A DNA stretch of 64,000 nucleotides from a virus: the IMG/VR virus record IMGVR_UViG_3300045988_154277; one strand, 5' to 3'. The position numbers and the translations under genes are program-made. Below are positions 2,151 to 48,606 of this stretch, piece after piece. The notes under the pieces were generated by a model. It was not told the origin of the DNA. It worked only from the letters and a program-made list of their open reading frames with translations, and did not search any database. Each line of letters opens with the position of its first letter. The first letter of the stretch is position 1.

Positions 2151-4244
2151 TCAGAAATACTCCTTCAGCTTGCGAAAATCGAATGGTGTGAACTGCTGTG
2201 CTTTCGAAGCTTGTTGTTTCACTTGGTCAGCACTGATCAGGTTATCATCGACCAACTTATCGTCTACCAAAGACTCTAAGTGTCGCAGTTCACGTTCATA
2301 CGATGTCTTCACCATAGCGTTGGAAGTGCCCAAGATCAATCCTTTTAACTCTCCGATCCTCTCACGGATCTTAAGCTGTCTACTCTTCGCTTCTGGATCC
2401 ACATGCTCTCCTTCCAGGTTCACTCCTTTCAGGACTTCTCCTTTGGGGATCCCATACAAGTGGTGGTTCTTACCATAAAGAGCGAAGAAACACGTTAACA
2501 ACCAAGCGATCACCATATCGTCATGGGATCCGATCGGATGGTCAACACGTCCATTCCTCACAGTAAGTGATTTGATTTCACTTGCCAAATCAGCATCAAA
2601 CAACCGGTTTGCCATGTACTGAAGACTGGTGATCAATACACGCCCATAGAGGATATTACGACTATCCTGACTGCTGGTGGTGTTGAACCCGAAGTGCTTA
2701 CGTTTGGTTCCATCTCCGATGTCGATCTGACTGATATCCAAGAACCCATCGCTTCCATCTTGGAAATAGGTATTATAGATCCGATAGAACGGGTTGATCC
2801 TCTTCTTGATCATCATGTCGATCAGAAGATCGATCATGAACGCTCCGTTCTTATTACGTTCTGGGATCAGGATACTGTTCGGTAGCATATCCATCAACTC
2901 TGCGATACACGATGCGACATTTACCAAGTTAGTAACGTTACACTTACACGTTGCTACCACAGAGAGATCCAATGGATCAGAGATCACCAATGTAGTATTA
3001 TCACGTCCTACGTTGTCCGAAGTATCCAACCCGATCAGATAGTTCCTCTTGCGATTTTCATCATTCATCAGGATAGAACGTTTAACATACCAACGCACGA
3101 TCAACCCACCGTGTGTGGTGAACTCCGTAGGTTCGCAGATCGATGCGTTGAGGCGATTCAACAACTCGATAGGAACGATCGACTGTCCAGTACCCAACTG
3201 CCATTCGTTGAGATAGTCGACAGCCACCGTAATAGCATCTTTCCCATCGGACATCTCTTCCAACCACGCATCATCCTCTCCTAACTGTTTATAGGAGTAT
3301 TCGAGATACATCATCGTCTTGCCGCCCATCCCTCTCATCCACTCTCGAACAGCAGCAACGTCTTTAAGGTCATAAACACACTCGTTAAACCGTGCACTGT
3401 TGGACTTCAGATGGAACGCATAAGCGCCTGCTGGGTCGTTGAGCATACCTGCCGTTGTAGTGAGGATGTTCGCAGAGGGGATCCCTCGTTCGAATGCCAT
3501 CTTCCTAGCGGTAGCACACGCACCTGTGGCAGATGGATACGACTTATGGTTGTTCACATAGTACGCCATCTCATCCCACCATTGTGAAGACGTGGTCTCA
3601 CCACGTCCCTGTCTTGCAGCACGACGCATATCCTGCTGAGCAACGAAGGATTTAACAGCATTCTTCAATCTACGATAAGTAACGTCTTCCTGGTTCTTGG
3701 TGTCGTTCTTATAATCGACAAGGTACTCAGGAAGACTGTTACGGATCTCCTTGATACGTTTAATGTTCTCAGAACGAAGACTATCGTCCTTCGCGAAGAT
3801 CCCGATAGTGATGTTCTTAGCAGCTAAGAACTCCTCCCACGACAGGATACACACAACACCGATGGTCTTACCCTTCTGGCGAGGCATGGTTAAGAAGCTA
3901 TCGATGGAGTTCAAGAAACACCAGTTCAGAGCTAAGTTCGCTCTGGAGAACTGATAGTGGATCGGATCACCGCCAGGGGCAGGCACACGAATCACTTCTC
4001 TTAAGTAATACCAAGGGTTGACCTTACACTCATAAGCGATCCTCTGTCTTAGTTCTACAGAAGGATCCTTTAGATCGTAAGGGTCATATTTTTGGAGATC
4101 TGGTTGTGACAAGAACAAGAAGAACTTATTGTTCTTGATCCCCATATCCTTCAGGATACGATACATACGGAAACAAGAAGCATTCGTCGTGTTCGTATCC
4201 AAAATACCACTGTGAGTATTATAATCATCTAAGAATAGTAGCAT
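2151..4244 (-). CDS. terL: terminase large subunit (T4 gp17-like)
   Basis: Walker A segment MPRQKGKTIGVVCILSWEEF...PEYL parallels T4 gp17 SRQLGKTTVVAIFLAHF...PDFL; C-terminal nuclease-domain motif HPIGSHDDMVIAWL resembles gp17 EEGYHDDLVMSL. Confidence 0.9.
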   Translation of the reverse strand: MLLFLDDYNTHSGILDTNTTNASCFRMYRILKDMGIKNNKFFLFLSQPDLQKYDPYDLKDPSVELRQRIAYECKVNPWYYLREVIRVPAPGGDPIHYQFSRANLALNWCFLNSIDSFLTMPRQKGKTIGVVCILSWEEFLAAKNITIGIFAKDDSLRSENIKRIKEIRNSLPEYLVDYKNDTKNQEDVTYRRLKNAVKSFVAQQDMRRAARQGRGETTSSQWWDEMAYYVNNHKSYPSATGACATARKMAFERGIPSANILTTTAGMLNDPAGAYAFHLKSNSARFNECVYDLKDVAAVREWMRGMGGKTMMYLEYSYKQLGEDDAWLEEMSDGKDAITVAVDYLNEWQLGTGQSIVPIELLNRLNASICEPTEFTTHGGLIVRWYVKRSILMNDENRKRNYLIGLDTSDNVGRDNTTLVISDPLDLSVVATCKCNVTNLVNVASCIAELMDMLPNSILIPERNKNGAFMIDLLIDMMIKKRINPFYRIYNTYFQDGSDGFLDISQIDIGDGTKRKHFGFNTTSSQDSRNILYGRVLITSLQYMANRLFDADLASEIKSLTVRNGRVDHPIGSHDDMVIAWLLTCFFALYGKNHHLYGIPKGEVLKGVNLEGEHVDPEAKSRQLKIRERIGELKGLILGTSNAMVKTSYERELRHLESLVDDKLVDDNLISADQVKQQASKAQQFTPFDFRKLKEYF

Positions 4245-5244: not shown

Positions 5245-5793
5245 TCACCGACGTTTGTCGGAGACTTTGCGGCGAGGAGCCTCTTTCGCACCTCTGTGTT
5301 CTTTGATCCGAACGTTGTGTTCCTTGTCGTCCTCTTTGGACTGACGAGGCTTGTGCGCCTGTTTGGGCTTACTGTCGTGTTTCTTGACCGTTTCCCAATC
5401 ATCGTCCGATTCGTGTTCTTTGATGATATTCATGGTCTTTTCCACAAACGCATCGGACACCACATAGTTGAGATCGATCAGCTTCGTCTCTTTCATGATG
5501 GTGAGCTTCTTGCTGGATAGAGGAAGTTCATTGATGGTTGCACGGAGTACTTTGACCTGATCTTGCAAGAAGTCTTTCAGCTTGTCCTTGACGGGATGTT
5601 TCCTCCCAACGACCTCTTTGTAGTCCCTCAGGATGATCTGAAGAACCCACTTCTCCTGTCCAAGAAGTTTATCGTTCATAGCGGTCTGCACCTCTTCGTG
5701 CTTATTGCAAGCACGACCTTCACCGTACCGTTTGCTGGTACGGCGAGTGCACGATTCACCACAGATTACACAGGTAAACGTCTGAAATCCCAT
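5245..5793 (-). CDS. hypothetical protein; N-terminal zinc finger (CVICGESC...C..H) and basic C-terminal tail
   Basis: start refined to MGFQTF (ATG at 5793) with TTAAGGAGAAAACAAATG RBS; lysine/arginine-rich C-terminus. Confidence 0.6.
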   Translation of the reverse strand: MGFQTFTCVICGESCTRRTSKRYGEGRACNKHEEVQTAMNDKLLGQEKWVLQIILRDYKEVVGRKHPVKDKLKDFLQDQVKVLRATINELPLSSKKLTIMKETKLIDLNYVVSDAFVEKTMNIIKEHESDDDWETVKKHDSKPKQAHKPRQSKEDDKEHNVRIKEHRGAKEAPRRKVSDKRR

Positions 5794-5918: not shown

Positions 5919-6746
5919 TTACTGAGAGATCTTCTTGAATCCAATCGTGAATGCGATGTCATCCGTGGCTTTGCCGAGGATCTTACCAAGTTCATACACC
6001 TGGTTGTAAAGTACGATACGATCTCCGACCTTAACGGTCTTCATCGTAAGTACGATATCTTCCAGAGCCATACGGATACAACGATAAATCATCCAGCCTT
6101 TCAGGACTTCTGTGATCGGTACTTCATAATCATCAGAACCCACAGAAGGAGCGATATTCACACTCTTGCTGAGGAACCGGATCCAGTCGATATTGACGAA
6201 CCAGTTCATCATCGTCCCATACGGCGTACGATCGAAGAGACGATAATTCGGCACAAGATCCAGTCCTTCGAACAGATCATCGTACGAAGAGAACTCCATC
6301 TCTGGGAATGCTTTGATATCGGTGTAGATGATACCGAAGTTGATATCACCAACGGATACCTTCATGTGAAGTTTGTTCGCTGGATAGATAACTTTCCAAG
6401 GTTCCTCTGCTCTGATAAACACTTCTCTGAGGATATTGAGAACGATATCTCTGCAGATCTTGGGGATCAGATACTGCTGAGGTTCTTGCCAAACCTTGAG
6501 TGTGTTCTCCAACAGATAACGTTTCGAGATCGATTGAAGTGTGGTGTCCTCAAGATAGTACACGTTGTTGGTTACACCTTCCAAAATCTGTTCTCTCACT
6601 TGGAGTTCTGCCAAGATCATAGAACGGATGTCTGCGTAGTTCTTGTTGATGAACTCCTTCAGTTCCTGGTAAGCTGCAACTACTTCATCCGATACAGTGT
6701 CGCAAGTGCAGGTGGTGCACGGTGTCGTGCAAGTACAAGTTGTCAT
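5919..6746 (-). CDS. hypothetical protein with N-terminal Cys/Thr repeat (MTTCTCTTPCTTCTCD)
   Basis: 275-aa ORF; the N-terminus is a near-repeat of (T)C-T units at both DNA and protein level. Confidence 0.65.
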   Translation of the reverse strand: MTTCTCTTPCTTCTCDTVSDEVVAAYQELKEFINKNYADIRSMILAELQVREQILEGVTNNVYYLEDTTLQSISKRYLLENTLKVWQEPQQYLIPKICRDIVLNILREVFIRAEEPWKVIYPANKLHMKVSVGDINFGIIYTDIKAFPEMEFSSYDDLFEGLDLVPNYRLFDRTPYGTMMNWFVNIDWIRFLSKSVNIAPSVGSDDYEVPITEVLKGWMIYRCIRMALEDIVLTMKTVKVGDRIVLYNQVYELGKILGKATDDIAFTIGFKKISQ

Positions 6747-6774
6747 AGGTTGTCTCCTTAAGTGAATGTGTATA

Positions 6775-7137
6775 TCATTTTGACTCTAAGGAGAGATCTA
6801 CGTAACAGAAGGAGCAGATAAGCACTTCGTCTGACTCATCCAACATGGTGTCGTTCGTAAGTGGGATTTCAACGTTGGTGACGTATCCATCTTCATCTCT
6901 ATCCGACTCCAGGACCGAGAGTTCGTCATATCGATAAGACCGTACTGGATGGGATGTATCAATGTTCTTGATTACGATCTCGTCTCCTGTGGATCCCAAA
7001 CAGAATCGATACAACTTGACGTAGTTGATCCCTGTCATCTCATCGGTATAAAGGTGGATGAGATAGGGTTTTCCTTGGATCAACAGTTCTCCTGTAGCGT
7101 TGACCTTCAGGATCGTGGTGTGTAAAAAGCGATGCAT
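6775..7137 (-). CDS. hypothetical protein (120 aa)
   Basis: ORF with RBS; acidic patches. Confidence 0.55.
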   Translation of the reverse strand: MHRFLHTTILKVNATGELLIQGKPYLIHLYTDEMTGINYVKLYRFCLGSTGDEIVIKNIDTSHPVRSYRYDELSVLESDRDEDGYVTNVEIPLTNDTMLDESDEVLICSFCYVDLSLESK

Positions 7138-7231
7138 TATGATTCCTCCCTGTTGGTATGTGAACGTGTGTAAGATAGTGAGAACATCTCAACATCTACG
7201 TTACTGTAATGTAACGTAGATGTTGAACATA

Positions 7232-7696
7232 TTAATTGGCTCTGGATTCAGCACCTTTCGATGTGAATATGACATCCGAGTAAGGATCGTAGAATACTTG
7301 ACGTTGATCAAGATGGAACAGTAATCTGTTCAGGTAATATGCAAAGTCCACGTCTTTACCAACCTCCATATACCCGTACACAATAACCTTAGTGATACGA
7401 TCGGCGAACTCAACAGAGATACCAGTATCAGTTAATACTTTCACCAACTGAGCTCTGTAATCCTCTGACTGACTCACTCCCCGTCTATGGATCAGAAGAG
7501 AAGCGATGATCGTACGATACGCCTCTACACCAGCAACGGTGTGCTCGTAACTTGGATACTTGCAAATATCACGGATCGTATCAGCCGTTCTTACAGCCTG
7601 ACGTTCCAGTTCATCTTGGAACACTACGGTTCCGGTACGACATCCCGCCAGAATGAGCATCACACATCCAACGAAAAATAAAACAAGTTTATGCAT
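7232..7696 (-). CDS. putative lipoprotein (signal peptide with lipobox L-A-G-C)
   Basis: start refined to MHKLVLFFVGCVMLILAGC with TAGGAGGTCTTATG RBS; hydrophobic h-region followed by Cys. Confidence 0.6.
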   Translation of the reverse strand: MHKLVLFFVGCVMLILAGCRTGTVVFQDELERQAVRTADTIRDICKYPSYEHTVAGVEAYRTIIASLLIHRRGVSQSEDYRAQLVKVLTDTGISVEFADRITKVIVYGYMEVGKDVDFAYYLNRLLFHLDQRQVFYDPYSDVIFTSKGAESRAN

Positions 7697-9117: not shown

Positions 9118-9197
9118 TGGTCCGTGTGGAGGGATTCGAACCCCCGACAACTCCTGCTCCCAAAGCAGGCGCGCTAACCAGACTACGCTACACACGG
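9118..9197 (-). tRNA. tRNA-Pro (anticodon UGG), CCA encoded
   Basis: manual cloverleaf: acceptor CCGTGTG/CACACGG; anticodon arm CCTGC-TTTGGGA-GCAGG; T-arm GGGGG-TTCGAAT-CCCTC; 3' ACCA. Confidence 0.8.
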
Positions 9198-9395: not shown

Positions 9396-9419
9396 CAGTT
9401 GTCTCCTGTATTCAAAGAT

Positions 9420-9490
9420 TAGTCCCACCAGGATTCGAACCTAGACTAAAAGATCCAAACTCTTCTGTGCTACCATTACACCATGAGACT
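9420..9490 (-). tRNA. tRNA-Gln (anticodon UUG)
   Basis: acceptor AGTCTCA/TGGGACT (one G-U pair); D-arm GGTG..CAC(C); anticodon arm GAAGA-GTTTGGA-TCTTT; T-arm CTAGG-TTCGAAT-CCTGG; an alternative fold would give Pro. Confidence 0.65.
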
Positions 9491-9506
9491 ACGAAGTTGT
9501 ATAGGG

Positions 9507-9639
9507 TGAATGTGGTAGGACTCGAACCTACACCAGTTTTCACTGACTTGTCATTCTCTGAGCTTGAGGTATATATCTCAGGATTCTCCAAGCGACCGAG
9601 GGACCAGCTCGGGACTCTAACCAGTTGAGTTACACATTC
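9507..9639 (-). tRNA. tRNA-like gene with a 62-nt insertion (canonical acceptor, D, anticodon arm with GGU [Thr?] and T arm)
   Basis: 5' GAATGTG..D-arm..CCGAG-CTGGTCC-CTCGG, then 62 extra nt, then GTAGG-TTCGAGT-CCTAC-CACATTC-A; the insert carries a GTATATAT promoter-like motif in the opposite orientation. Confidence 0.4.
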
Positions 9640-9640
9640 A

Positions 9641-10139
9641 TGGTGGAGGTGGCGGGTTATTCTCCCGCGTCTTACCTTACTTCAGATCAGTTTCGTTCAC
9701 AAGCTTAGTTTCGCTTATATTAGTCACACAGTCGATGTACGAAACTTGAGGAATCTCAGAGTGCTACTCTGTATCATTCTAACTGTACTGTGTCAAGTCA
9801 CTTCATGTGGGCGCTACTCCACTTCATGGATGCTCCCAGTAGTGTACCATCCTGGGCTACATCGACAACCAATCTGTGCGCATATTCTAACGATTCACGA
9901 TTGGTGAACCTCATTAGAACCCGAACCAAAGAAACGAGAGCGAATCATCGAGTCTTTGAAATTGCACTACTAGTCTCGTTATCGGAGTCCGAGACGTTCG
10001 TGGCCATCACGCAGCAGCGAGAAGGGCTTCTTCAGTGTTGTTGACACTTATTGTTTTGATCAGCTTTTATACAGGCCAACTGATCAACCTGTGCTTGCAA
10101 CTTAATCTTCCACAAAGCAATCGAAATAAAATCACCCCC
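9641..10139 (-). ncRNA. ssrA: tmRNA (ssrA-like), about 499 nt
   Basis: 5' GGGGGTGATTTTATTTCGATTGC versus E. coli GGGGCUGAUUCUGGAUUCGACGG; 3' GACGCGGGAGAATAACCCGCCACCTCCACCA versus E. coli GACGCGGGUUCAACUCCCGCCAGCUCCACCA; tag frame ...NNTEEALLAAA then TGA, starting about 90-95 nt from the 5' end. Confidence 0.75.
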
Positions 10140-26115: not shown

Positions 26116-26778
26116 TTATCGACGTTTCTTACGACGTAACTGACCGATCTTGTTCGAAGGATCGGTGGGATCTCGCATCTCACCACCTTCACGCATCTGA
26201 TCTCTCAGATACTTCTCGACCCAATCACGGGTCGCTTCGATCGCATCAAGTTCATCGAAGGTAAGGTTCGGGTCCGTGGTCACCCACTCTTCCACCATGT
26301 AGTCGGGGATCTTCCCATCTGCATAGAAGTTCTTGTTGAGTGTCACTTTGCCGTTGTCGATCAGACGTCCGAAGACATCCTCTTGTGGAAGGTTCTCTTT
26401 GCAGAACCCATATCCGTAGATCCGATCTTGCTCGAACAGTTCCCGGATGGGTTGATACATCAATATCGGCAGCTGCATCGATACTGGTGTATTATACAGT
26501 TGCTCTTCGCTGGTGATCGCTTGGATCTGGAGAGGGTTCGATACAGCAAGAGAAGTCTGCTGGACCATCATGTTCGTATCAACCAGTTGCGTCTGAACCA
26601 ACGTCATCAGGTTGTTGAACCGATCTGCCAGGGGATCTCCTGCCTGTCCGAAGATCACTCCGTTCTGGTTCCCATACTGGTGGTTGAGATAACTCAGTAC
26701 ATCCGAAGTTGCACTGGTTCCCAACAGAGAACCCAAAGACGGGGTGATCAACGCTTCTGCTAGTGGTGCGATATACAT
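26116..26778 (-). CDS. hypothetical protein (220 aa) coupled to the ACP gene
   Basis: GAGGTGA RBS overlapping the ACP stop; basic C-terminus RRKKRR. Confidence 0.6.
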   Translation of the reverse strand: MYIAPLAEALITPSLGSLLGTSATSDVLSYLNHQYGNQNGVIFGQAGDPLADRFNNLMTLVQTQLVDTNMMVQQTSLAVSNPLQIQAITSEEQLYNTPVSMQLPILMYQPIRELFEQDRIYGYGFCKENLPQEDVFGRLIDNGKVTLNKNFYADGKIPDYMVEEWVTTDPNLTFDELDAIEATRDWVEKYLRDQMREGGEMRDPTDPSNKIGQLRRKKRR

Positions 26779-26786
26779 AAGTCACC

Positions 26787-27086
26787 TCACTTGGAGGCTT
26801 CTTCTGCATCACTTCCAGACGCGGACACCTCTTCTGATTCTGCGGGATTGAGAACACGATCCATCAGATCCACGACATCCTTCACGGTGACACACTTCTC
26901 AGCATCTTCATCCGTGATGTTGACATTGTACTCTTCTTCGAAGGACATCAGAACTTCGACTTTGTCGAGGCTGTCCATCGTCAGATCTTCCAAGGTCATA
27001 TCCTCGGTGATCGGATCATCTTGATCGTAAGCCACCTGTTCTGAGATGACTTCGATTACTTTCTGTTTGACTTCTTCACGAGTCAT
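26787..27086 (-). CDS. acyl carrier protein homolog with acidic C-terminal extension
   Basis: aligns along its length to E. coli AcpP: LEDLTMDSLDKVEVLMSFEEEY versus [22 protein letters not shown] (the DSL serine is the phosphopantetheine site); EDAEKCVTVKDVVDLM versus EEAEKITTVQAAIDYI. Confidence 0.75.
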   Translation of the reverse strand: MTREEVKQKVIEVISEQVAYDQDDPITEDMTLEDLTMDSLDKVEVLMSFEEEYNVNITDEDAEKCVTVKDVVDLMDRVLNPAESEEVSASGSDAEEASK

Positions 27087-27095
27087 TCCATTCTC

Positions 27096-27365
27096 CTATG
27101 CAGGTTGTTCAGCTTCGTCGAACTGTCTGGGATCGTTGATATAACAGTTCAAGGCGATCGCTGCTTCTTTCGTGATCATGACATCACTTGTGATCCCGAT
27201 GTCATCTCCCGCCAACAGTACATTAGCAGGGTGCATGTTCATTAATGCAGGTATCATTTGCAACTCTTTGATGGATACTCCATTCATCGCTACTACCCGT
27301 GCCTTATACACGGGGCTAGACTGTCCTTTCGTCATATGTACACGTGCACTTGTACAGTTAGACAT
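27096..27365 (-). CDS. hypothetical protein (about 89 aa from Met57; the ORF-track N-terminal extension to 27533 is doubtful)
   Basis: stop TAG sits inside the ACP RBS (tight coupling); TGGAGACGGTATG RBS for Met57; the upstream 200 nt is GC/purine-rich and looks like structured RNA. Confidence 0.4.
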   Translation of the reverse strand: MSNCTSARVHMTKGQSSPVYKARVVAMNGVSIKELQMIPALMNMHPANVLLAGDDIGITSDVMITKEAAIALNCYINDPRQFDEAEQPA

Positions 27366-28124
27366 ACCGTCTCCAGTCGTTGAAGCGGATCTATCAAGTT
27401 GAACTCCTTCAGTACCCGTTAAGTACCTCAACCGTGGTCTATCGGGCTCGCTAGACGCTACTCTAGCACCTTCTCTCTTCGTGGAGATGTGCGCTTCGCA
27501 CCCTACTACCTTACCCCTCACCCGGCAGGCCATTCACTTGATATATTTAGATCTGAGCTGCTGATAGCACCATTTTGCTGATCATACACATCGACTGTAA
27601 CCATCTATGTTCAACATATAGCAAATCAAGGTTGTTACACCAAAATTACAGTCGTATGCATCATCAACCATCGATAGAGAACCGGAGTGTGGTCAAGATA
27701 GAGCAACACGTATCGAATGTGCGCTACAACACCAGCCACGCGATGTATCTCCAGCTTTTATTTCATCTCATCGACATCCCAAGACGTTGTTTCTGTCTCA
27801 CGACACCTCAGTGAGGTCTCTTGGGCTTTAGGACGTCCCAGCTATTTACGGTAATTCACGCACACAGTTTCCTGTATACGGGCCAATGATCGGTTAGATC
27901 ATAAGCATCTCCATCATAGTCACTTACATTCCAAGTACTAGCGTGTGATTCAAGTACTCCGGTTCGCTTAAGGAACCTGCCCATACTCTTCGTATGGAAA
28001 TCGATTATATCTCAACCCTCAGCTTGATCTGTTAGGGCAACCTTCGTTTACGTCTACCATTACACACGTTGTAGACCTACGTGGTCTTTCACCACTAATC
28101 TGTGAACACATCCTGATAATAGTT

Positions 28125-28209
28125 TGGTAGGCGATAAGGGACTCGAACCCTTACGTCTTACGACACTGGATCCTAAATCCAGAGCGTCTACCAATTCCGC
28201 CAATCGCCC
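28125..28209 (-). tRNA. tRNA-Leu (anticodon UAG), class II, CCA encoded
   Basis: acceptor GGGCGAT/ATCGCCT; anticodon arm CTGGA-TTTAGGA-TCCAG; long variable arm; T-arm AAGGG-TTCGAGT-CCCTT; ACCA. Confidence 0.8.
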
Positions 28210-28212
28210 AAA

Positions 28213-28287
28213 TGGAGCCCCGTGCAGGAATTGAACCCGCCTCCCAACCTTACAAGGGTTGACTTGAGCCACTCAAGCTAACGGGGC
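28213..28287 (-). tRNA. tRNA-Thr (anticodon UGU), CCA encoded
   Basis: acceptor GCCCCGT/ACGGGGC; anticodon arm CAACC-CTTGTAA-GGTTG; T-arm GCGGG-TTCAATT-CCTGC; TCCA. Confidence 0.7.
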
Positions 28288-28982
28288 ATTATCAAGACTT
28301 CGTTACTGGTTACACATTATGACCATCCCTTAGCACGTATATTTGTACGCTTTTATTTCAGCATAGGACATCTCGATGTTTCTTTCTATCTTTCGATCAC
28401 ATTCACGCCCGCCTTTTGAGCCACGTTGTAGTACATCGAGCTTTAGTTGCTTCCAGTTATTAGAAGGTTTACGCACCACATCCTTTCAGATATAGTGTTC
28501 TGTGCTAACCCCTTGATAATCAAGATGTTAGACAAAATTTGGGGCCGCGGATATTTCGGGAGATACTCCTATCGTCACATCTCCATACTCGCGTTTGAAC
28601 TTTGTTGCAAATAATGTAAATATGGCACCTAGTCGAAGGGACGGATTCCTGCCAACACCTATGTTCGTTACAAGACGCTACTCTTATAACCGCGCCATTA
28701 CGCGCAGTACTACTTTCGTAGTTCTTAGGTCAGACTAGATCTCAAACTTGACTATCGTCAAGCCCACTACCGTTTCCATCACCATATCGCTTGTGATGTA
28801 CTCCCGGAGATTAACCCGGGATAGTCGTTGCACCGTATCTCTCCGTTAAGGAGAGGCTTGGCCAGGGTTAGCATATACCTCACGATACTTAGCGTTCCCT
28901 GTTTTCAGTAGTGTCTGCTACGGGGTATCACTATCCCGTAGTCCTTGTAGTTTGACAGCTTACTTTGTCAATAAGTTGTCAA

Positions 28983-30134
28983 TTACGTTAAGAGACAGGT
29001 CAATCCCCTTACATAGTCCATGCCATATTTTCTGCACTCTTCTTTGCACTCTTCGATCAGAACATGCAACAGGTTGTAGATGTCCTCATCGAACTTTGCC
29101 AATGCAGCGTTGTGTTTCGCTACCGCTTGCGGTATCGTCAATCCCATCCGTTTGGTCATCAGATTGATCAATTCCAATTTCCAACAGACCACACCGATCA
29201 GGTATGGAAGATGGAGTTCATCCGCTTCATGTGGTTCGGTGATCGGTACGATCACACCTCGGAACGAACAATGGAGTCGTGCACCCATAACCAACTTACG
29301 GATATAACCGATCTTACTGATCAGTTTCACCTTGGAGATCAGAGTGCTGTATTCCACGATCGACCGTTGGATCTCCCACATCCGTTGATCCACGAACTTG
29401 GGACCAACTGTTCCATAGTTGAATACGTAGATCAGAGCGGACAACTCTGCTTTCGCATCCAAGATCGCTTCCACGGTATCATCACTGTATTGCATGGTAC
29501 CGGAGGTTGTGATCAGATGGAGAGCTTGGTTCAACACCGGAATATGTCGAATGAAGATCCTGTTGCGATAGCGCTGGATATATTCGGCGATCCCTTCTGA
29601 CCTAGCTCTTGCGGATGGTTGTTTTAACGGCGCATAATCGTTGAGGAAGAACCTTACGATGTCGTCGAAGTTATTGTAGAAATACTCAAACCCCTGACCG
29701 AGCAGTCCTTTCAACGGTTGCGGTAACTCAACATCGACATTGAGTAAGGACTCCAATATCGATACGGATTTGCACTTACCGAGCCACTTATCCAACACTC
29801 GATAGACTGCAGGATGGATGACACTTGGTGCAAAAGGAGGCAACTCCAACCAAGCACGGAACTTCACCTTATCGGCGAAGTAAGTACGAACAGGTGTATG
29901 ACACCTGCTACACACAGTGCCTTCATAGAAGTTACCTTCGAGATGTCCACACTCACAAGATGCGACGAAGTTCAGTTCCTTGACACCGTCCTGGAATAGG
30001 TTCTGGATCTGTTCTCTCATCTGACTCTTGGATGTGAACTGCTGATCACAAGGGATGACTTTCGCATCCGGATCCTCCCAGAACATCTTCTCGTAGTCTG
30101 TCGGGATCAACCGTACAAGTTTCCGTGTTGCCAC
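28983..30134 (-). CDS. multisubunit RNA polymerase beta' subunit, N-terminal fragment (split gene)
   Basis: zinc finger CECGH..C.RCHTPV like E. coli beta' [42 protein letters not shown] like [32 protein letters not shown] like [31 protein letters not shown]..ELHLP like GKRVDYSGRSVITVGP..RLHQCGLP; ends before NADFDGD; GTG start with AAGGAG RBS. Confidence 0.75.
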   Translation of the reverse strand: [383 protein letters not shown]

Positions 30135-30231
30135 CTTGTACTCCTTGTTATTGGGTTCCTGTGAAAAATAGAAGAGGATAGCCTGGATCTATCCTCCCCT
30201 ATAAGGTTACTGCTGTTTACTCTGATCGAGA

Positions 30232-31815
30232 TCAGAGGCAGTAGATGCTCTGCTGATTGGCGTACGGATACTGACCAACCATGACACGGTTCATCTGGGA
30301 GAACCCAGTGAAGTCGTTCGCCTGAGAAGTCATCAGAGGCGCAACGCTGTAGGTCGAGCTGGACGGAGTATCGTAGTTGAGCTTGACGCCCGCCTGATTC
30401 AGGATGGTCGCGATCGCGATCGCGAGTTTGCTGTCGAGGACCACGGTCGTGGTGGTGTAGAGATTCTCAACACCATCGGAGAAGATCCCCTTGACTTCGT
30501 TGATGTGTCCTTCCGGAAGGTTGGACTGACGCAGCAGAGGACGGATCTTGCTGAGGGCGTTCTGCATCTTCGGAGCCAGACGGAGGTAGTCCACCCAACG
30601 GGTGTCCTTGCCGATGCCGTTCTCCTGGTACACACCGGTGAAGTTCCGGCACATCCAGACAGCGACGTCACGTCCGAGGATCTCCGGACCGAACCCACCG
30701 TAGATGCCGTTGCCGAGGAACATCTGCAGAGACGCCACGAACTCAGCACGCTTGTCCTGATAGATCATGGCATCGATGCCGACCGGACGCGCACGTCCTT
30801 CGGTGATGTCGACCGCGAGGAACGGTTTGATCAGCGACTCGTTCACGAAGCGATGGAACTCGTCCACGCTGGTGATGTTGTAGGGCTGCTGAGTCTTCGG
30901 ATCCGTGTACAGGTTGCCGAGGTTCGGCTGATCCTTCTGAGCGAAGGAGGCGTACGGACGGCTCCACAGGGACTGCATGATGAACGCATCGGTCGCCACG
31001 GAGAGCGCCAGGGCCATCAGGTTCTGGTTCGGGATCTTGCAGATCACGTCGGTGATCACGGCAACCGGGATGAACTTACCCGCACCGGTATCTTCAGGAG
31101 AGAGGATACGGGTGTAGCCGGTGATCGCCATGAACGGCTGCTGATCGATTTCTGGCTGACCGAACCGGTTCGTGGTGCCGGTGGGCACGTCGATGCAGAG
31201 CAGGATGCCGATATCGTTCCGAGCCGGAACCGCATGCGGGCTGTTCTTGGAGGTCCAGTCATCGACCGCTTCTTTGCGGGTGATCACGGAGAACCGTTCG
31301 TTGCGGAGGGACTCGACGTTCAGGACGCTGCCACGAACGCAGGAGTTGATCGAGTTCATGATGAACGCGGCCATGTTGTCCGCCTTGGCATAGTCTTCTT
31401 TGCGAACCACGATGGACTGCAGAAGCTTCGCATCGCCGCGCATGTTCTTCAGCATGTTCGCGAAGTCACGGGACTGTTCGGAGATGCTGTTGCTGTCGAC
31501 AGCGCCATAGGTTTCAGCGAAGATCAGGTTGATCGCGAACTTCGACTGTTCGTCGATGAACGCACGCCCTTCCGCACGGGTCGTCGCGATCGGATAGGAA
31601 CTGATCGTGGACTTGAAGTCGACCAATTTCTTGTCGATCTTCTGGATGTAGAACTGACCTTCTTCGGACAGTCCGGTTGCCGATGCGGTTCCTTTCAGGA
31701 ACTCGCTCAGGCGGATGGCGTTCGGGATGGTGGTCTTCGGAGCGGCGTTGTCCATCGGCGAAGATCCGTTCATGTTGGTGTTGTTGGCTGTGGAGCCAGC
31801 GGTTTTCTGTGCCAT
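30232..31815 (-). CDS. abundantly expressed early protein with anomalously high GC; putative chimallin (phage-nucleus shell) or major virion protein
   Basis: AAGGAGGAATTACTATG RBS; promoter motif upstream; about 58% GC against 42% background; adjacent to the beta'-N gene, as chimallin is said to be in phiKZ (recollection, not checked); no sequence-level confirmation. Confidence 0.45.
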   Translation of the reverse strand: MAQKTAGSTANNTNMNGSSPMDNAAPKTTIPNAIRLSEFLKGTASATGLSEEGQFYIQKIDKKLVDFKSTISSYPIATTRAEGRAFIDEQSKFAINLIFAETYGAVDSNSISEQSRDFANMLKNMRGDAKLLQSIVVRKEDYAKADNMAAFIMNSINSCVRGSVLNVESLRNERFSVITRKEAVDDWTSKNSPHAVPARNDIGILLCIDVPTGTTNRFGQPEIDQQPFMAITGYTRILSPEDTGAGKFIPVAVITDVICKIPNQNLMALALSVATDAFIMQSLWSRPYASFAQKDQPNLGNLYTDPKTQQPYNITSVDEFHRFVNESLIKPFLAVDITEGRARPVGIDAMIYQDKRAEFVASLQMFLGNGIYGGFGPEILGRDVAVWMCRNFTGVYQENGIGKDTRWVDYLRLAPKMQNALSKIRPLLRQSNLPEGHINEVKGIFSDGVENLYTTTTVVLDSKLAIAIATILNQAGVKLNYDTPSSSTYSVAPLMTSQANDFTGFSQMNRVMVGQYPYANQQSIYCL

Positions 31816-31898
31816 AGTAATTCCTCCTTATGGCTGTTCTTGGGTTGTTAATGTTTTGTGCACAAATCATCACACGACCCACTCGTACGATGATTCTA

Positions 31899-31917
31899 TT
31901 TAGTTATATATAGGTGA
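31899..31917 (-). promoter_or_regulatory. promoter-like motif (sense: CACCTATATATAACTAAA)
   Basis: recurrent motif about 88 nt upstream of the ATG at 31815. Confidence 0.5.
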
Positions 31918-31924
31918 GACTCTG

Positions 31925-33106
31925 TTGAAGAAAATCCTACCCAGAGCATGCTATGTCAAACAGAAAAGGAATCTTCTCATGTTCAACATCATTTTGAAAT
32001 ATGCATCCGGACAGGCACAGACGATCAGCGAGTGGATGAGATACGTGAACACAGTCGAACTGAGAACCAGTATCTATAAAACTCGATTTTTAATGGGACC
32101 TTTTGTTTACAGTCCATTCGTCAATCTGTGCAAACAGATCTTACACGATGTAGCAGTGACTGATCTATTAAAAAATAGAAGTGATTACGCGAGGTATCAA
32201 CAGATCTACTATCTAATCGGATCTTACCGAGGGATGTTCGATCCTGTATACAACGTGAAATCATCTGGAGGTCTCTTCACCAAAGGTTCTACAGCTGATT
32301 ACGTTCTCAACGTGATGAGAACTTCTCCGATGCAATCTTTGCCATTGGATCGTTCTTGGGATCACTGGAAAGAACTGCAACCGACCAGGATCATCTACCA
32401 CGACTCTATGGAGTTGGTGACCGATCTCGGATCATTCAGTGTTGAGTTCAAGAAACATCCAGCATCTTGGATGACCTGTTCAATCGATCTGATCCTGCTG
32501 ATCTTCAAATATCTGAAGTTCGTGGAATACGGTAACAACACCGGAGATGATACCGATATCGAAACCTATCTTCAACGTTACGTAATCCCAGGATGGTTCG
32601 ATGATCTTCGCAACATCTGGCTGTTCAACGTATTGAACGCGATGATGTTCGATCAGTTCCGTAGGGAAGACGTTTACACAGATGGGACGATCGCTCCTTT
32701 ATCTGGATTACTCGGGGTTGCTCCTGATATCCACAGGATCCAAGCAGAAGCTCAACAGAAAACTCTGTTGTTCGGTGAAGTATTGGTAACCGAATGGTTC
32801 GGTCATACCAAGCCATTGCTCGCATGGATCCGTGAGATTCACGATGATCTCAGTGTACCAGATCTCAGGCAATATGCACATCTGAAGTTCCTGGAAGAGT
32901 TCCCGTATGTTGCATTCGTCATACGACTGAACAACATGATCCGTTCCAGGGAAAGTGCGAAGGTGAATCGAGAGCTCTATCAGCTCCTGAAACGCTACGA
33001 TGATAGTAATATCTATGCGAACCTTCCTCAACAGCAACTGAGAGACAAAATGTCGTATGAAGTAGGACATCTTCTGTCAGAGACGAAAGAATACCAATCC
33101 TACTAA
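31925..33106 (+). CDS. hypothetical protein (up to 393 aa; true start may be the ATG at 31979)
   Basis: long plus-strand ORF with protein-like composition; the ORF-track start is TTG. Confidence 0.55.
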   Translation: MKKILPRACYVKQKRNLLMFNIILKYASGQAQTISEWMRYVNTVELRTSIYKTRFLMGPFVYSPFVNLCKQILHDVAVTDLLKNRSDYARYQQIYYLIGSYRGMFDPVYNVKSSGGLFTKGSTADYVLNVMRTSPMQSLPLDRSWDHWKELQPTRIIYHDSMELVTDLGSFSVEFKKHPASWMTCSIDLILLIFKYLKFVEYGNNTGDDTDIETYLQRYVIPGWFDDLRNIWLFNVLNAMMFDQFRREDVYTDGTIAPLSGLLGVAPDIHRIQAEAQQKTLLFGEVLVTEWFGHTKPLLAWIREIHDDLSVPDLRQYAHLKFLEEFPYVAFVIRLNNMIRSRESAKVNRELYQLLKRYDDSNIYANLPQQQLRDKMSYEVGHLLSETKEYQSY

Positions 33107-33247: not shown

Positions 33248-34888
33248 TTAGAAGATCCCAACCTTAGGTCCTGTCCCAATCGCGTTCATAAGGGTAGCAA
33301 CATTGCCTCCTCCATTGTTGCTGGCGATAGCACCAGCTAACGCTGCGATATCTTGACCTCCACTGGAGACCTCTCTATTTGATCTCGCAGAGTCGATATC
33401 CGACACCGTATCACCCGTCGGTGCATTGTTCGCCGGAGTATACTCCAAAGACAATACCAGATCGCATTGACAGGTATGAACATACTCACTACCGTGACGA
33501 CCTACTTCTAAGAAAGTGTAGGATACTCCAGAACAGATCCCTGTTTTGGTGGTATACATCGAAGTAGCACTGACGGTAGCACCTTGTTCTCCATTAGCGA
33601 TATTGTCTCCATCGTAATGGTAATAGACACAGTATCCTGGTTTAAATGTGAATGGTACTGCAGCAGCCCATTGTGTTGTTACGATCACTCTACGATAAGC
33701 GTTCAAGAGTTCACGAAGCTTATACGGGTTGCTATCATCGAACCGGAACATCGGTTGATAAGCGTTGTACGTCATACCGAGATCCGACTCACCTGCCGAG
33801 AACATATTGGTATTCAACTCACTGACCGATACCTTACCAAGTCCCGTAGCACCTGACTCACCGATCGTAGTTGCACTGTCAATGATCCTGGTAGCATCTT
33901 GGATGATCATAGAGGTACCGTCCATCTCGGACCCACTATCTTGGAGATCTTGCTCCTTAGCGAATCCGTTCAAGATGATGTGTGTGATCGTATCCGCCAT
34001 CGCGTGGTTGACATCGTTACCAGTGTAGTTGTTGCCCACATAGTAAAGATGTGCTGACTCAGGAGTGGTTGGTTTGGTCTCGCACTCAGGGAACACGTAG
34101 AGTGTTTCGTCAGTATAGTAGAACCCTAATCCCTTGTTGTACACTCCATAGTAGGACTGTAAGAACACCATCGCCTGATCGAACGACAAGCTCGGTGGGA
34201 TGTAGAAGTTTTCATAGGTTTTAGTGTTGTCCGGCTGAACGATCGCTGTCTTCTTGATCTCACACAACTTACAGATCAACAAGATCGCATCTTTTATCGT
34301 CACTTGTCTGGCGATGAAGTTCAACTTGATCTTACGGAGATTGTAAGAGGATTGGTCGATCAACTGGAACTCAGCATCAGGGATCATCGCTCCTTGTTGT
34401 TCTTGAGTCATCTGACCCTGTGTATCCGGAACAAGAGCTTCTTTGGAGTACTTCTTACGAATATCGGATTTATCCTTGAAGATCACAAGATACTCTTTGA
34501 TGATTGTGGGAGCAGTCTCACGTTTCATCGTGTTCTTATTCGTCGGTATGAACTTCAGAGAACATTTCAACCCTCTTGAGTTGTCATACATCTGAAGATA
34601 CTGCGCTGGCATCAATGACACCACCAATGAGATCTCATCGGTATAACTACTGTTGAAGTTCTGTTCGATCGTAAGCTTCACAACTTCAAACGGTGTTACC
34701 TCAAATCGTTCGTTGTTCGTTCTATTATCACCAAAGAACAGACATTCGATCGTGTACGATCCGAAGGTAGGACGTTCTGTGATGTTGATCGAAGAAGTGT
34801 TCGGTGTATCCGGAGACGATGCTTCGTTAAGGATCAGATCCACGTTGGCTTTCATCGTATCCGATACTGGCATGATGTATTGAGACAT
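33248..34888 (-). CDS. hypothetical protein (546 aa), possibly structural
   Basis: long ORF; Ser/Thr/Gly-rich segments. Confidence 0.65.
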   Translation of the reverse strand: MSQYIMPVSDTMKANVDLILNEASSPDTPNTSSINITERPTFGSYTIECLFFGDNRTNNERFEVTPFEVVKLTIEQNFNSSYTDEISLVVSLMPAQYLQMYDNSRGLKCSLKFIPTNKNTMKRETAPTIIKEYLVIFKDKSDIRKKYSKEALVPDTQGQMTQEQQGAMIPDAEFQLIDQSSYNLRKIKLNFIARQVTIKDAILLICKLCEIKKTAIVQPDNTKTYENFYIPPSLSFDQAMVFLQSYYGVYNKGLGFYYTDETLYVFPECETKPTTPESAHLYYVGNNYTGNDVNHAMADTITHIILNGFAKEQDLQDSGSEMDGTSMIIQDATRIIDSATTIGESGATGLGKVSVSELNTNMFSAGESDLGMTYNAYQPMFRFDDSNPYKLRELLNAYRRVIVTTQWAAAVPFTFKPGYCVYYHYDGDNIANGEQGATVSATSMYTTKTGICSGVSYTFLEVGRHGSEYVHTCQCDLVLSLEYTPANNAPTGDTVSDIDSARSNREVSSGGQDIAALAGAIASNNGGGNVATLMNAIGTGPKVGIF

Positions 34889-35509: not shown

Positions 35510-37195
35510 TTACCAGGCATCTGCCGTTTCAAACGGATTGTAACCCAGTCGTTGAGCTAATGCTCGTTCGTCAGGAGGAAGACCTTCGTAAGACTCACCA
35601 CAATCTCCGTTGATTTCAGGAGGCTTGCCGTAATCGTCTTGCGCACGTCCACCATCATCGGGGATACAGTACCGATCACAATCTTCCAGACCATCCGTCC
35701 AAGGAGGTCCCGGATGATGTGGTGGAACAGGCATCGGAGGTCCTGGTTTGTGACAAGGACAACATCCCGATCCACCCGGAGGTGGTCCAGGAGGAGGCAT
35801 CGGAGGTTTCCGATCACAATCACAGCAGTACACACAAGTACTGCAGTCCATATCACAAGCATCGTTGGTGGGTTCTTCCACGATGATACCGCCCGATCCT
35901 GTTTCCAAGATCCCTTGGAGTTTCTTCAGAAGGAACACCAAGATCGGTATGAAGTAGAACCTCGCCAGTCGTTTACAGGTGAGGATCTTATCCACTAACT
36001 CCAGAAGTACTTTCGGTCTCACTTTCCCTTCCGACAGATACAGAAGGATCTGCATCTGGATCGTTCTCGTCTCAGCATCGTATTCTGTTGGGATGTTGAA
36101 CGGAGGATAGTTGTGTCTTCCATTCGGATGCAAACGAATATAACAGCGATTCGTCAGAGCGTTGATCCCAGCTGTTCTGTAATGAACACCCTTCAGGATG
36201 CGATAACATTTGTCGACAACGACTTCTTCAGGTACGGTATCTGGATCCAAAAGTCTTGCCCAGAAGGATCTGGACCACCACTCTGGTGATGGAACCAACT
36301 GGGTTGGGTATGCTCTGAAGTATTTATAATCGAACACTCTTGTGATGAACTCCACGATGTAAGGATCGTAGAGACAAGGGTTCTCAATGAATGTACGGTA
36401 GATATATTTCTCGTAGAACTCACTCACGTAATACTTGGAGAGTTTGGTGATGGCGTCTTTGACTTGACCCAAGGTCTCCGTCTCATCAGAGGTGAGAAGA
36501 GCTCCTTCTCCAGAGATATAACGTTGAAGATTGAAGTAACGTTCTTCAGTTACACGATCGTTCAACGTATCCAGTTGTTCTTTGGAGAGATAATCTACCA
36601 AGATAAACTTGATCTCATGGCCGGTGAGATCCTTGATCGACAGACGAGTTGGTGGGTCTGTTATCTTGTACAGACCATACACGCCTTTCTGTACTTCATA
36701 GATGAACAGGTCACCCGTCCAAGGTACGAAGAAAGGATAGAGTACCGCTTCTCCCGTGACTTGGGATTTCACCTTGCTTCCGTCATAGGAGAATGCAAGG
36801 CTGTCTTTCAACTTCATCTGGAAGTTGTTGATCTTCAGATACGCAACGTGTACATTATCCTGTTGAAAAGAAAGATCGTTGAAGAATGATCTCGCTGTTG
36901 CATCATTGTTCAGATTGTGATAGAACGTCACAGTGATGGACATTCCGGCACTGTATGCGAGGAGTGCTGTATCCAACGTCGTCTTCGCTGTAGTAGCTAC
37001 GGTGTTGTCAGCAGCATCCGTTGCTTGCACATATGGTTCAGATGCCAACGCCTGGGATGGTGTTGGGTTGACCACTGCGGACGAATCCACTTCTGGTTTC
37101 TCGGAAGGAGGAACCACGAAGCAACTGGTCTCACAGTTGGGTCTATTAGGGTTCTTTGGCTTACGAAGCGTGCCATTCGCTTTTGACATAGGCAT
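35510..37195 (-). CDS. hypothetical large protein with C-terminal Cys-knot and Pro-rich region
   Basis: CDMDCSTCVYCCDCDRKPPMPPPGPPPGGSGCCPCHKPGPPMPVPPHHPGPP; AAAGGAGAAATAACGT RBS. Confidence 0.65.
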   Translation of the reverse strand: MPMSKANGTLRKPKNPNRPNCETSCFVVPPSEKPEVDSSAVVNPTPSQALASEPYVQATDAADNTVATTAKTTLDTALLAYSAGMSITVTFYHNLNNDATARSFFNDLSFQQDNVHVAYLKINNFQMKLKDSLAFSYDGSKVKSQVTGEAVLYPFFVPWTGDLFIYEVQKGVYGLYKITDPPTRLSIKDLTGHEIKFILVDYLSKEQLDTLNDRVTEERYFNLQRYISGEGALLTSDETETLGQVKDAITKLSKYYVSEFYEKYIYRTFIENPCLYDPYIVEFITRVFDYKYFRAYPTQLVPSPEWWSRSFWARLLDPDTVPEEVVVDKCYRILKGVHYRTAGINALTNRCYIRLHPNGRHNYPPFNIPTEYDAETRTIQMQILLYLSEGKVRPKVLLELVDKILTCKRLARFYFIPILVFLLKKLQGILETGSGGIIVEEPTNDACDMDCSTCVYCCDCDRKPPMPPPGPPPGGSGCCPCHKPGPPMPVPPHHPGPPWTDGLEDCDRYCIPDDGGRAQDDYGKPPEINGDCGESYEGLPPDERALAQRLGYNPFETADAW

Positions 37196-46953: not shown

Positions 46954-48606
46954 TTAGTTCAAAACGAACTTGTTGAGATCATCGATCTGATAAGTTGAGA
47001 TCTTCGTACCATGCATGCTCTTCAGAGCATCCGTGGTGAAGGTCGATGTGATATCCACTGCATCCAATGCAAGATGCTTCGCATTCTTCTTCGCATAGAT
47101 GTCGCCCATGCACATGTAACAGAGTCCATGTTGGGCTTGACAATACATCGGAGAACGCACCAAACATGTCTTACCGACGAACTTCTCCATGTTCTGTTCT
47201 GTAAGAAGAACCCAGTTCGAACCATCTTGGATATAGGAACCAAGATAACGTCCGATCTTGTACTTCGAGAAATCCACAGTAAGTCCACGTGTGGTGTGAC
47301 AGTCCTGTTCTGATACGGTAAGGTCCTGAAGAACACGGGTGATGCCTTTGGTTAGTGCACCGCCGAGTTTCGTCTGGTCACCACGGTTGAACGAACCTTT
47401 ACGGGTCTCGTTCGCCATAGCAGGCATCGTCTCTGCGGTCATCCCTTCGGACAGAGAGTTCGGAATAAACACGAAGTTCCCAGTTGTCTTGGAGAACTCT
47501 TCCACACCACCGACCGTCAGATACATCTTCTTACGGGAGATGTTGAAGGGTTTGTCACCGAGCGGCCCATAGAATCGCATCACTTCATCATCTTTGAGAT
47601 AGTTCTTATCCATCGCGATCAAGGTATTCTCGATCTCCATGATGACGTTCGGATCGTTCAACTTATCCTTGTACTTCTCCATCAACTCTTGTTTCACTTT
47701 CCTCACATTCGGATCTGTGGTAAGTGATTTACGAGTATAAGTCGGTACACAGAGTTCAGTGAAGTGTCCGATGAAGTAGAGATCGTTCACATATTGCTTA
47801 TATGCGGATACCGGGATAGAACCGTCCAACATACCTTTGGCAACGATCGTATCGATATAACCGAGATCAAATACGGAGTTCTGATAAGAGATCTTGTCTT
47901 GGAATGGATGAACCAGAAGAAGGTAGTTCAATAAGAACCGACCTACGGTGGTAATCATCTCTTCCTTGCAGTTGATGATCTCACCGGGATTCAGTTGGAA
48001 CGTATCGATCTCACCGAATGCTCTCTGGATCCCGTTGTCCAGGTAGTTCAATGTGAACGAATATGTCTCCTGATCGATATCCGAGACATACACCAGACAG
48101 GACTGACTGCTACCCACAACGGATGCCAAGAACACATCTCCTTCTTGCAAAACACATTTCTGGAAGTGTGTTGCGTTGTAATTCGCAGAGGTGTAGTAAT
48201 CGAAGAGCTCTTGGTTCGTCTTGTTGTAGAGGTCTTTGCTGAACTGATCTGCTTCTTCTTTCTTCTCTGGAGAGAGAGCAAGGTAGTTCCTATACTGGAA
48301 CAGAAGATGGAAAAGACTATCGTTGAACGGATACACCAGTGCGATTTGTCGCATCGCGATCTGTTTCAAAACTTCATCGTCTGTGATATCTTGCTCTTGC
48401 AGAGGAATATACACCGCATCTTCCGGAGGTGTCTTCAATGTAACACGAACAGAATGACGTTCCGGTGTGATCGCTTCGCTCTCATACAGAGGGAAAACAG
48501 GACGTCCACCAACCTGTGTCATGATGTCGATCAAAAATGCACGTTCTAACAGACGTCTCTGGTACTTGATCAAAAACTCTTTCTTATGGATCGGAAGTTC
48601 CATCAC
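46954..48606 (-). CDS. multisubunit RNA polymerase beta' subunit, C-terminal fragment (trigger-loop region) with phage-specific N-terminal domain
   Basis: [31 protein letters not shown] like E. coli beta' [82 protein letters not shown] like [58 protein letters not shown]. Confidence 0.8.
   Translation of the reverse strand: [550 protein letters not shown]

Follow-up and report, generated by a model that had tools for sequence, protein, structure and literature searches.

Where is the active site of the RNA polymerase (RNAP) subunit encoded at positions 28983–30134 of IMG/VR virus record IMGVR_UViG_3300045988_154277? At this place the window, by which we mean the whole 64,000-nucleotide (nt) stretch of viral DNA analysed, contains an open reading frame (ORF) of 383 amino acids (aa) ending in ...GLTCLLT, present just as a preliminary description of the locus reported it. 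That description took the product for a beta'-type subunit of a phiKZ-like, non-canonical RNAP which stops before the metal-binding motif, in a phage whose polymerase subunits are split at the protein level, and on these points it is borne out. When the ORF is compared by tblastn with 50,697 phage records, 186 records are matched, all at 29% identity or less; what they contain are the beta'-type RNAP subunits of phiKZ-like jumbo phages, among them phiKZ gp55, PhiPA3, Burkholderia FLC6 and Bacillus AR9. In phiKZ the counterpart of the product is beta'-N, and further along the window (Table 1) there is a homolog of phiKZ gp80, the beta'-C subunit of the virion RNAP. The family assignment is based on tblastn, on phmmer against the PDB and on the homologs; these comparisons show the 383-aa ORF to be distantly homologous to phiKZ gp55, which is beta'-N in the non-virion RNAP.

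The comparisons lead to the following answer. The ORF is very probably the first exon of a four-exon beta'-N gene, interrupted by three self-splicing group I introns, which would encode a 491-aa subunit with its active site intact.

Catalytic motif and coding exons

The preliminary description found no NADFDGD-encoding exon in the 1.4 kb following the ORF and presented the ORF as a fragment that stops before the active site and whose catalytic segment might be found elsewhere in the genome. The pattern GAYTWYGAYGGNGAY, which codes for D[YF]DGD, has a single match in the whole window, where 0.03 are expected by chance. Since this sole match sits at 27907–27921 on the minus strand, the statement that no motif follows downstream was wrong. 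The match encodes DYDGD and lies 1.06 kb downstream of the ORF, on the correct strand and in the required frame. The catalytic segment thus appears to be encoded in cis, about 1 kb away and across three group I introns. The earlier text had left two routes open, a segment encoded elsewhere or one reached through an intron or splicing; the former is not upheld, and because the latter was correct, its interpretation is partly supported.

Translation of the minus strand downstream of the ORF reveals three short coding pieces in frame: first GRNPSLRLGAIFTLFATKFKREYGDVTIGVSPEISAAPNF, next ..SDYDGDA.. and last the carboxy-terminal part of an otherwise orphan 145-aa ORF (27096–27533). Exons 2 and 4 were located by tblastn with the uninterrupted homologs P0009 and P0017, and the junctions were fixed by DNA comparison with close relatives that lack or share each intervening sequence. 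These relatives are L004 (97% aa identity), L008 (98%), L010 (97%) and L006 and L009 (79% each), together with the uninterrupted L005 (P0009). L004 and L008 lack intron 1 and read CLFGRNP, while L006 and L009 are uninterrupted where the window has introns 2 and 3 and read APNFDYDG/DAMHG (here and below a slash marks a splice site or break point), continuous through both window junctions. The boundary between exon 1 and intron 1, CTCT/TAACG, follows from the intron-less alleles of L004, L006 and L008 and from the rule that the exon ends in U and the intron in G. The final two codons of the ORF and its stop (..L-T-stop) are intron sequence, not coding sequence.

It might be supposed that the 383-aa polypeptide is itself the mature subunit and that another gene, located elsewhere, supplies the catalytic segment as a product of its own. 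The beta and beta' subunits of phiKZ-type RNAPs are indeed split into separate polypeptides (PMC8287921), the window has the gp80 homolog, and the public gene calls list a 383-aa protein. A split at the protein level is nonetheless extremely improbable for this gene. In the phiKZ enzyme the split falls after DxDGD: beta and beta' exist as separate polypeptides, beta'-N includes the motif, and gp55 contains 417-DFDGD-421 in the cryo-electron microscopy structure (PMC8287921). In the window, the 108 residues that the ORF lacks follow in cis, in the right order and frame; two of the pieces, of 38 and 6 aa, have no start codons and could not assemble as subunits, and the last codons and stop of the ORF form the 5' end of a group I intron. 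A protein search of the family gives 49 homolog clusters, 15 of which (for instance P0009, P0017 and P0031) are continuous through N-x-D-[FY]-DGD.

The remaining clusters, approximately 34 of the 49, break in one of two motifs, at no fewer than seven distinct points: CL/FG, GRNP/, GRNPS/, APN(F)/, NAD/, DYDG/ and DGDA/. Gene callers split the gene, and some two thirds of the homolog clusters give the same impression of truncation; unless introns are modelled, catalogues of jumbo-phage RNAPs will therefore misreport enzymes without an active site. An intron-split gene is thus expected for this family, and is a known kind of feature that annotation pipelines misread.

The four exons (1144 + 121 + 19 + 192 nt) add up to 1476 nt, or 492 codons in one frame. 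The product reads ...GRNPSLRLG...APNFDYDGDAMNG..., and the spliced messenger RNA (mRNA) would encode the peptide APNFDYDGDAMNGVSIK. It aligns through all three junctions to PDB entry 7ogp, chain A (E=1.3e-36, residues 33–456), and has 491 aa compared with 508 for the phiKZ chain. All the invariant columns of the family are kept (R384, N385, P386, N421, D423, D425, G426, D427, E436 and H447), as are the invariant zinc-binding cysteines C60, C75 and C78. The stop codon at 27096–27098 is followed by an acyl carrier protein gene. The product ends shortly past the active-site double-psi barrel, as is proper to a gp55-type protein, whose beta'-C counterpart, with the bridge helix and trigger loop, is a polypeptide apart. 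The second exon aligns to phiKZ RNPTLQRGSTQQFFITKVK...APN and is 82% identical to L004 in nucleotide sequence, with the amino acids conserved; the fourth, which is the 3' part of the 145-aa ORF, appears as an 89-aa gene in public calls. L004 and L006 assemble likewise, into proteins of 488 and 487 aa, respectively, and the same 19-nt exon is found in L004, L008 and L010.

Between the window and L004, exons 2 to 4 show 25 synonymous and 6 non-synonymous codon differences, and 28 of the 39 nucleotide differences fall at third positions, which marks the small exons as coding sequence maintained by purifying selection and not as debris. This bears on a further possibility, namely that insertions have disrupted the gene, that the downstream pieces are remnants of a decaying pseudogene and that the phage relies on another RNAP. 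Three introns without endonuclease ORFs, low Rfam scores (see below) and a highly variable region of transfer RNA (tRNA) cargo speak for such decay. We consider it very improbable: besides the strong purifying selection on exons 2 to 4 and the retention of all invariant residues, there are compensatory substitutions in the intron stems, and the same architecture is kept in at least six related genomes. In phiKZ-type phages the non-virion RNAP transcribes the middle and late genes (PMC4666361), and its loss should for that reason be lethal.

At the DNA level, megablast of 26700–30200 against the 50,697 phage records gives no match, so there is no close cultured relative among them. The window sequence recurs unchanged within a 278,450-bp metagenome scaffold (ENA ERZ28568400), on which the public gene calls place the 383-aa protein and then the 89-aa orphan. 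A metagenome scan with protein alignment found only one further close locus, L010, and exact-pattern scans of viral contigs for the cores of introns 2 and 3 returned only two contigs, both already known.

Table 1. Predicted features of the beta'-N gene and of its surroundings in the window
Feature	Position	Strand	Description
ORF	28983–30134	minus	GTG start; 383 aa; ends ...RGLTCLLT, stop
Exon 1	28991–30134	minus	1144 nt; residues 1–381 and first base of codon 382
Intron 1	28656–28990	minus	group I, 335 nt, no ORF; inserted L/F-GRNP
Exon 2	28535–28655	minus	121 nt; (F)GRNPSLRLGAIFTLFATKFKREYGDVTIGVSPEISAAPN(F)
Intron 2	27923–28534	minus	group I, IA-like, 612 nt; inserted AATTT/TGAC (APNF/D)
tRNA-Thr (UGU)	28213–28287	minus	ARAGORN; Rfam tRNA 43.9 bits (gathering 29); CCA encoded
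tRNA-Leu (UAG)	28125–28209	minus	ARAGORN; Rfam tRNA 56.4 bits (gathering 29); CCA encoded; 3 nt after tRNA-Thr
Exon 3	27904–27922	minus	19-nt micro-exon TGACTATGATGGAGATGCT; completes F, encodes DYDGDA, catalytic Mg-binding triad
Intron 3	27288–27903	minus	group I-like, 616 nt, no ORF; inserted GATGCT/ATGAAT (DGDA/M)
Exon 4	27096–27287	minus	192 nt including stop; MNGVSIKELQMIPALMNMHPANVLLAGDDIGITSDVMITKEAAIALNCYINDPRQFDEAEQPA, stop
Acyl carrier protein	26787–27086	minus	99 aa; PP-binding, E=6e-10; directly downstream of polymerase gene
527-aa ORF	30232–31815	minus	directly upstream of polymerase gene; AlphaFold2 fold match to chimallins
Conserved protein, function not assigned	33248–34888	minus	PHROG 3245, E=2e-31
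Virion structural protein	35510–37195	minus	PHROG 3013, E=1e-49
phiKZ gp80 homolog (virion RNAP beta'-C)	46993–48207	minus	31% identity, E=4e-56
tRNA-Pro (UGG), two copies	9118–9197, 9419–9491		beside 9507–9639
tRNA-model match, 133 nt	9507–9639	minus	45.9 bits
Possible phage transfer-messenger RNA (tmRNA)	9641–10139	minus	Rfam tmRNA 71.2 bits (gathering 47); not called by ARAGORN; beside tRNA cluster

The three intervening sequences

The three introns, lying within 1.9 kb of the gene, have several hallmarks of group I. The base before each 5' splice site is U, and G is the last base of each intron when the boundaries are set in the one way that brings back the reading frame; in minimum-free-energy folds the last exon U is paired with G, as a U.G wobble, at the 5' splice sites of two of the three (introns 2 and 3). 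As is expected for homing introns, they sit in the two most conserved motifs, GRNPSL and APN-DxDGD. The window copies contain no endonuclease ORF, only chance frames over the tRNA genes and in the tail of intron 3; HNH_3 genes scoring above the Pfam cutoff are present in the same introns of L004, L008 and L009, and a cargo ORF of L010 is a weak match. The window introns look like endonuclease-less derivatives.

The first intron is matched at 28707–28982 by the full length of the Rfam Intron_gpI model (49.7 bits, gathering threshold 50, E=8e-11), with the match beginning at the base after the stop codon of the ORF. Its homologs in L009 and L010 score 38.8–43.7 bits with the same model. The L009 copy, at the same site and 90% identical, has an HNH_3 ORF in the loop of its first hairpin, and between this copy and an intron of the intron-3 type L009 has an 18-nt micro-exon of its own (7229–7246, TTGGCAGAAACCCAAGCT, encoding GRNPS).

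The Intron_gpI match of intron 2, at 27980–28501 (20.7 bits, E=0.006 in a 631-nt search), spans the two tRNA genes listed in Table 1. The sequence threads through model positions 1–253, from P2 to P9, with a 167-nt insert in the P6 loop, and there are extra hairpins between P7 and P3', as in subgroup IA. Its P7 is GAUUA/UAAUC, compared with GAGUA/UACUC in the related intron B of L006, and the changes that distinguish it from the L004 copy are compensatory where they fall in stems, or else lie in loops.

The third intron is 78% identical to an intron located at a different site (GRNPS/L) in L006 and L009. The guide region differs between the two sites as needed to pair with the respective exons; read by hand, P10 is AUGA:UCAU in intron 3 of the window and UGAG:CUCA in intron A of L006. 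An explicit P1–P9 structure of 57 pairs, including the P3/P7 pseudoknot, was written onto an alignment of six sequences of the intron 3 family (A2), since RNAalifold cannot represent this pseudoknot and proposed an alternative long-range helix. In the core 95.5% of cells are paired, compared with 25–39% in slid controls. Compensatory changes occur in P2, in P6 and in the long-range P3, where an A-U pair is swapped for U-A across about 530 nt, and P4, P7, P8 and P9 are invariant. A group II identity, considered for intron 3 on account of the sequence GUGCG at about 27855, was rejected: a hairpin resembling domain V is absent, the phasing of the exons disagrees with it, and P3, P7, P8 and P9 follow each other in the group I order, with covariation.

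The exons are not separated on the minus strand by any terminator-like or sigma-70-like site. In the proposed mechanism, a single pre-mRNA would run from 30134 to 27096 on the minus strand. The three group I introns would then excise themselves by guanosine-initiated, two-step transesterification, joining CTCT/TTGG, AATTT/TGAC and GATGCT/ATGAAT, and translation of the spliced mRNA would give the 491-aa protein, complete with its zinc-binding cysteines, RNP motif and catalytic DYDGD. The two tRNAs would be transcribed together with the polymerase gene and released from the intron RNA by the tRNA-processing enzymes of the host.

Several observations weigh against this gene model. Intron 1 scores 0.3 bits below the Rfam gathering threshold and intron 2, at 20.7 bits, far below the threshold of 50, while a search with intron 3 alone gives only chance-level Rfam matches. 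The covariation in intron 3 comes from six sequences of about three lineages, and the structure was drawn from these same sequences. The P1 register of intron 1 is not unique in the minimum-free-energy fold of the junction, which allows LF or, with the site 2 nt upstream, LV; the LF junction is favoured because it is identical to the closest intron-less alleles. Pfam finds nothing in the 383-aa ORF, in the downstream 145-aa ORF or in the spliced product, although the homologs P0009 and P0017 pass the threshold of PF00623 (RNA_pol_Rpb1_2). Processing of the tRNAs inside intron 2 could compete with its splicing. In phiKZ, introns were predicted around gp56, gp72 and gp179 in 2002, and a long-read study saw no spliced reads under its conditions (PMC10914365). 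Finally, we infer from sequence comparison that the gene is spliced in vivo, and likewise the order and efficiency of the splicing events.

As a hot spot for introns the locus is unusually dense and changes fast, with at least seven insertion points in two motifs, an intron type that has been retargeted and exons as small as 18–19 nt. Here one could study, in a natural setting, how neighbouring group I ribozymes fold and splice when a minimal exon lies between them.

Transfer RNA genes inside the second intron

Both tRNA genes of intron 2 are located in the terminal loop of P6, closed by GUCUUGAUAAU/AUUAUCAGGAU, a stem of 9–11 bp. This loop is peripheral, and the cargo leaves the ribozyme core undisturbed. 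All examined copies of this intron type contain at least one tRNA, with a cargo that varies among relatives that are 97–100% identical. L019 is 98.3% identical to the window in nucleotide sequence, with an identical exon-1 protein; from it and from L008 the tRNA-Leu is missing as a clean indel of about 90 nt (window 28118–28207), while the tRNA-Thr is present in both. In L004 a different tRNA-Thr sequence stands in its place, together with a tRNA-Leu, and the same intron has an HNH gene in its P1 loop. The P6-loop cargo of L010 is 937 nt long (6598–7534): an insertion with an odd tRNA and an HNH_3-like ORF (a weak match, 17.5 bits) apparently interrupts a tRNA-Thr, and a tRNA-Leu follows. L006 and L009 have the odd tRNA in a different peripheral hairpin of a related intron.

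The odd tRNA (L006 2495–2575, L009 8147–8227, L010 6640–6720) is 81 nt long, scores 47.5 bits with Rfam and is missed by ARAGORN. Its anticodon is UGU (Thr), yet its variable arm is long, as in class II tRNAs (Leu, Ser or Tyr). As its amino-acid identity is ambiguous, a role in recoding is conceivable. In 35 long ORFs, codon usage is not clearly related to the two tRNAs that intron 2 of the window carries.

We infer that the tRNAs are expressed from intron 2. It is possible, and on balance somewhat doubtful, that the intron is more than a parasite, being a mobile platform which carries and expresses tRNA genes (in relatives also the odd tRNA) in the peripheral loops of a homing intron; these would be transcribed only within the polymerase pre-mRNA, would mature from the excised intron or by a cleavage that leaves a two-piece ribozyme, and could pass from one co-infecting phage to another with the intron or inside it. 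Should the tRNAs be expressed, their supply would be tied to the expression of the polymerase, and a selfish intron would offer its host something useful.

The gene model may also be retained with another mechanism for intron 2. RNase P and 3' processing would release the tRNAs first, and a two-piece ribozyme, held together by P3–P7 and P6 pairing, would join exons 2 and 3; or else tRNA release and splicing would be mutually exclusive fates of the transcript. The tRNA genes are co-oriented with the polymerase gene, encode CCA and lie in a terminal loop closed by a stem of 9–11 bp, all of which would suit such a course, and the td intron of T4 tolerates a break in a peripheral loop. Group I introns that splice in trans have been reported, in an algal mitochondrial ribosomal RNA gene (PMC3873408). 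Splicing in cis before tRNA processing is simpler, however, and the cargo is dispensable for splicing, given that L019 and L008 get by with one tRNA less. Such a mechanism for intron 2 is unlikely, and cis-splicing is the course preferred here.

Genomic context and comparison with known systems

The 527-aa ORF directly upstream of the polymerase gene has no similarity to any named protein in BLASTP, PHROGs and PDB sequence searches. An AlphaFold model calculated from 23 homologs (predicted local distance difference test, pLDDT, 81.7; predicted template modelling score, pTM, 0.83) matches only chimallins, the proteins of the phage nuclear shell: the nine top matches have E-values of 2e-17 to 4e-14, with template modelling scores of about 0.6 and 12–13% identity, and the next has E >0.03. 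Judged from this model, the ORF encodes a very divergent chimallin, for which reason the phage is probably nucleus-forming. The order of chimallin and beta'-N genes is the same as that of gp54 and gp55 in phiKZ. The window comes from a very divergent, probably nucleus-forming jumbo phage with split polymerases of the phiKZ type; in such a phage, were intron 2 a mobile tRNA platform, the tRNAs would need export from the phage nucleus to reach the ribosomes. The G+C content of 30001–32000, the block that contains the 527-aa ORF, is 0.545, compared with about 0.45 elsewhere in the window.

The acyl carrier protein gene is kept at the same position in L004, L006, L018 and L019. Of the partner subunits in the non-virion enzyme of phiKZ, gp68, gp71, gp73 and gp74 have no homolog in the 64-kb window; the only piece with one is gp80, from the virion enzyme. 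The genes matching PHROG 3013 and PHROG 3245 lie close to the polymerase and chimallin genes, making this a mixed neighbourhood of early and structural genes. Far from the locus, the tRNA-model match at 9507–9639 may contain an insertion or intron, as it is far longer than a normal tRNA.

The closest known system is phiKZ itself (L001, NC_004629.1). Its gp55 belongs to the same gene family, follows the nuclear-shell gene in the same order and likewise looks truncated as annotated. As annotated, gp55 ends in ...APN and gp60 of LucasX in ...KAL, while the downstream exons begin with ADFDGD and PNADFDGD, respectively; the introns after the two ORFs score 75.6 and 54.7 bits with Rfam. Chain A of 7ogp is named PHIKZ055 + PHIKZ056.1, and the characterised phiKZ subunit is thus itself an intron-spliced fusion. 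On the phiKZ genome the two parts lie at 2947–4209 and 5567–5785, and the gp55 of RefSeq (420 aa) stops inside the intron. The true second exon starts with GCTGATTTTGAC (ADFDGD), 33 nt upstream of the annotated start of PHIKZ056.1, and LucasX gp60 is truncated alike. The phiKZ group I intron lies within 2 nt of the site of intron 2 in the window and immediately ahead of the D-x-DGD codons (AAT/GCT in phiKZ, AATTT/TGAC in the window), although the intron sequences are unrelated at the BLAST level. Where phiKZ has one intron, with an HNH and NUMOD endonuclease gene and no tRNA, there are in the window three introns without ORFs, a catalytic exon of 19 nt and two tRNAs.

Self-splicing introns in conserved phage genes are known from td, nrdB and sunY of T4 and from orf142 of Twort, which has three, and phage group I introns tolerate extra sequence in terminal loops such as P6. 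In these cases the cargo is an endonuclease ORF, unlike the tRNA genes of the window. The HNH intron in an RNAP gene of PhiPA3 is functional and acts in competition between phages (PMC11620839). In this chimallivirus gene, gp210, the group I intron is mobile, encodes an HNH nicking endonuclease and sits at highly conserved codons of catalytic importance (PMC11620839); L004, L008 and L009, relatives of the window, resemble it in having HNH_3 genes in their introns. The PhiPA3 gene differs from the window in being a virion RNAP beta gene with a single intron and no tRNA cargo reported, whereas the window introns are without endonuclease.

No phage exon of a length as small as 19 nt is known to us, and the literature yielded no phage precedent for micro-exons between group I introns. 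A search of literature full text likewise gave no phage or bacterial tRNA gene inside a group I intron. Such genes have been annotated in fungal mitochondria, where in Ophiostoma minus the intron atp6-i1 has a tRNA-Ile and cox1-1281 a tRNA-Arg (PMC7902536), and the giant ND5-717 introns of hexacorals are described as complex group I introns (PMC6545197). Compared with the window, these organellar cases belong to mitochondrial genomes, and neither the position of the tRNA in the ribozyme fold nor its polymorphism is described there. As phiKZ gp55 has a known intron at this place, the basic phenomenon is already known. What is unusual in the window is the 19-nt catalytic micro-exon and the tRNA-Thr and tRNA-Leu in the P6 loop of intron 2, and both the micro-exon and this polymorphic cargo in a ribozyme loop are directly testable.

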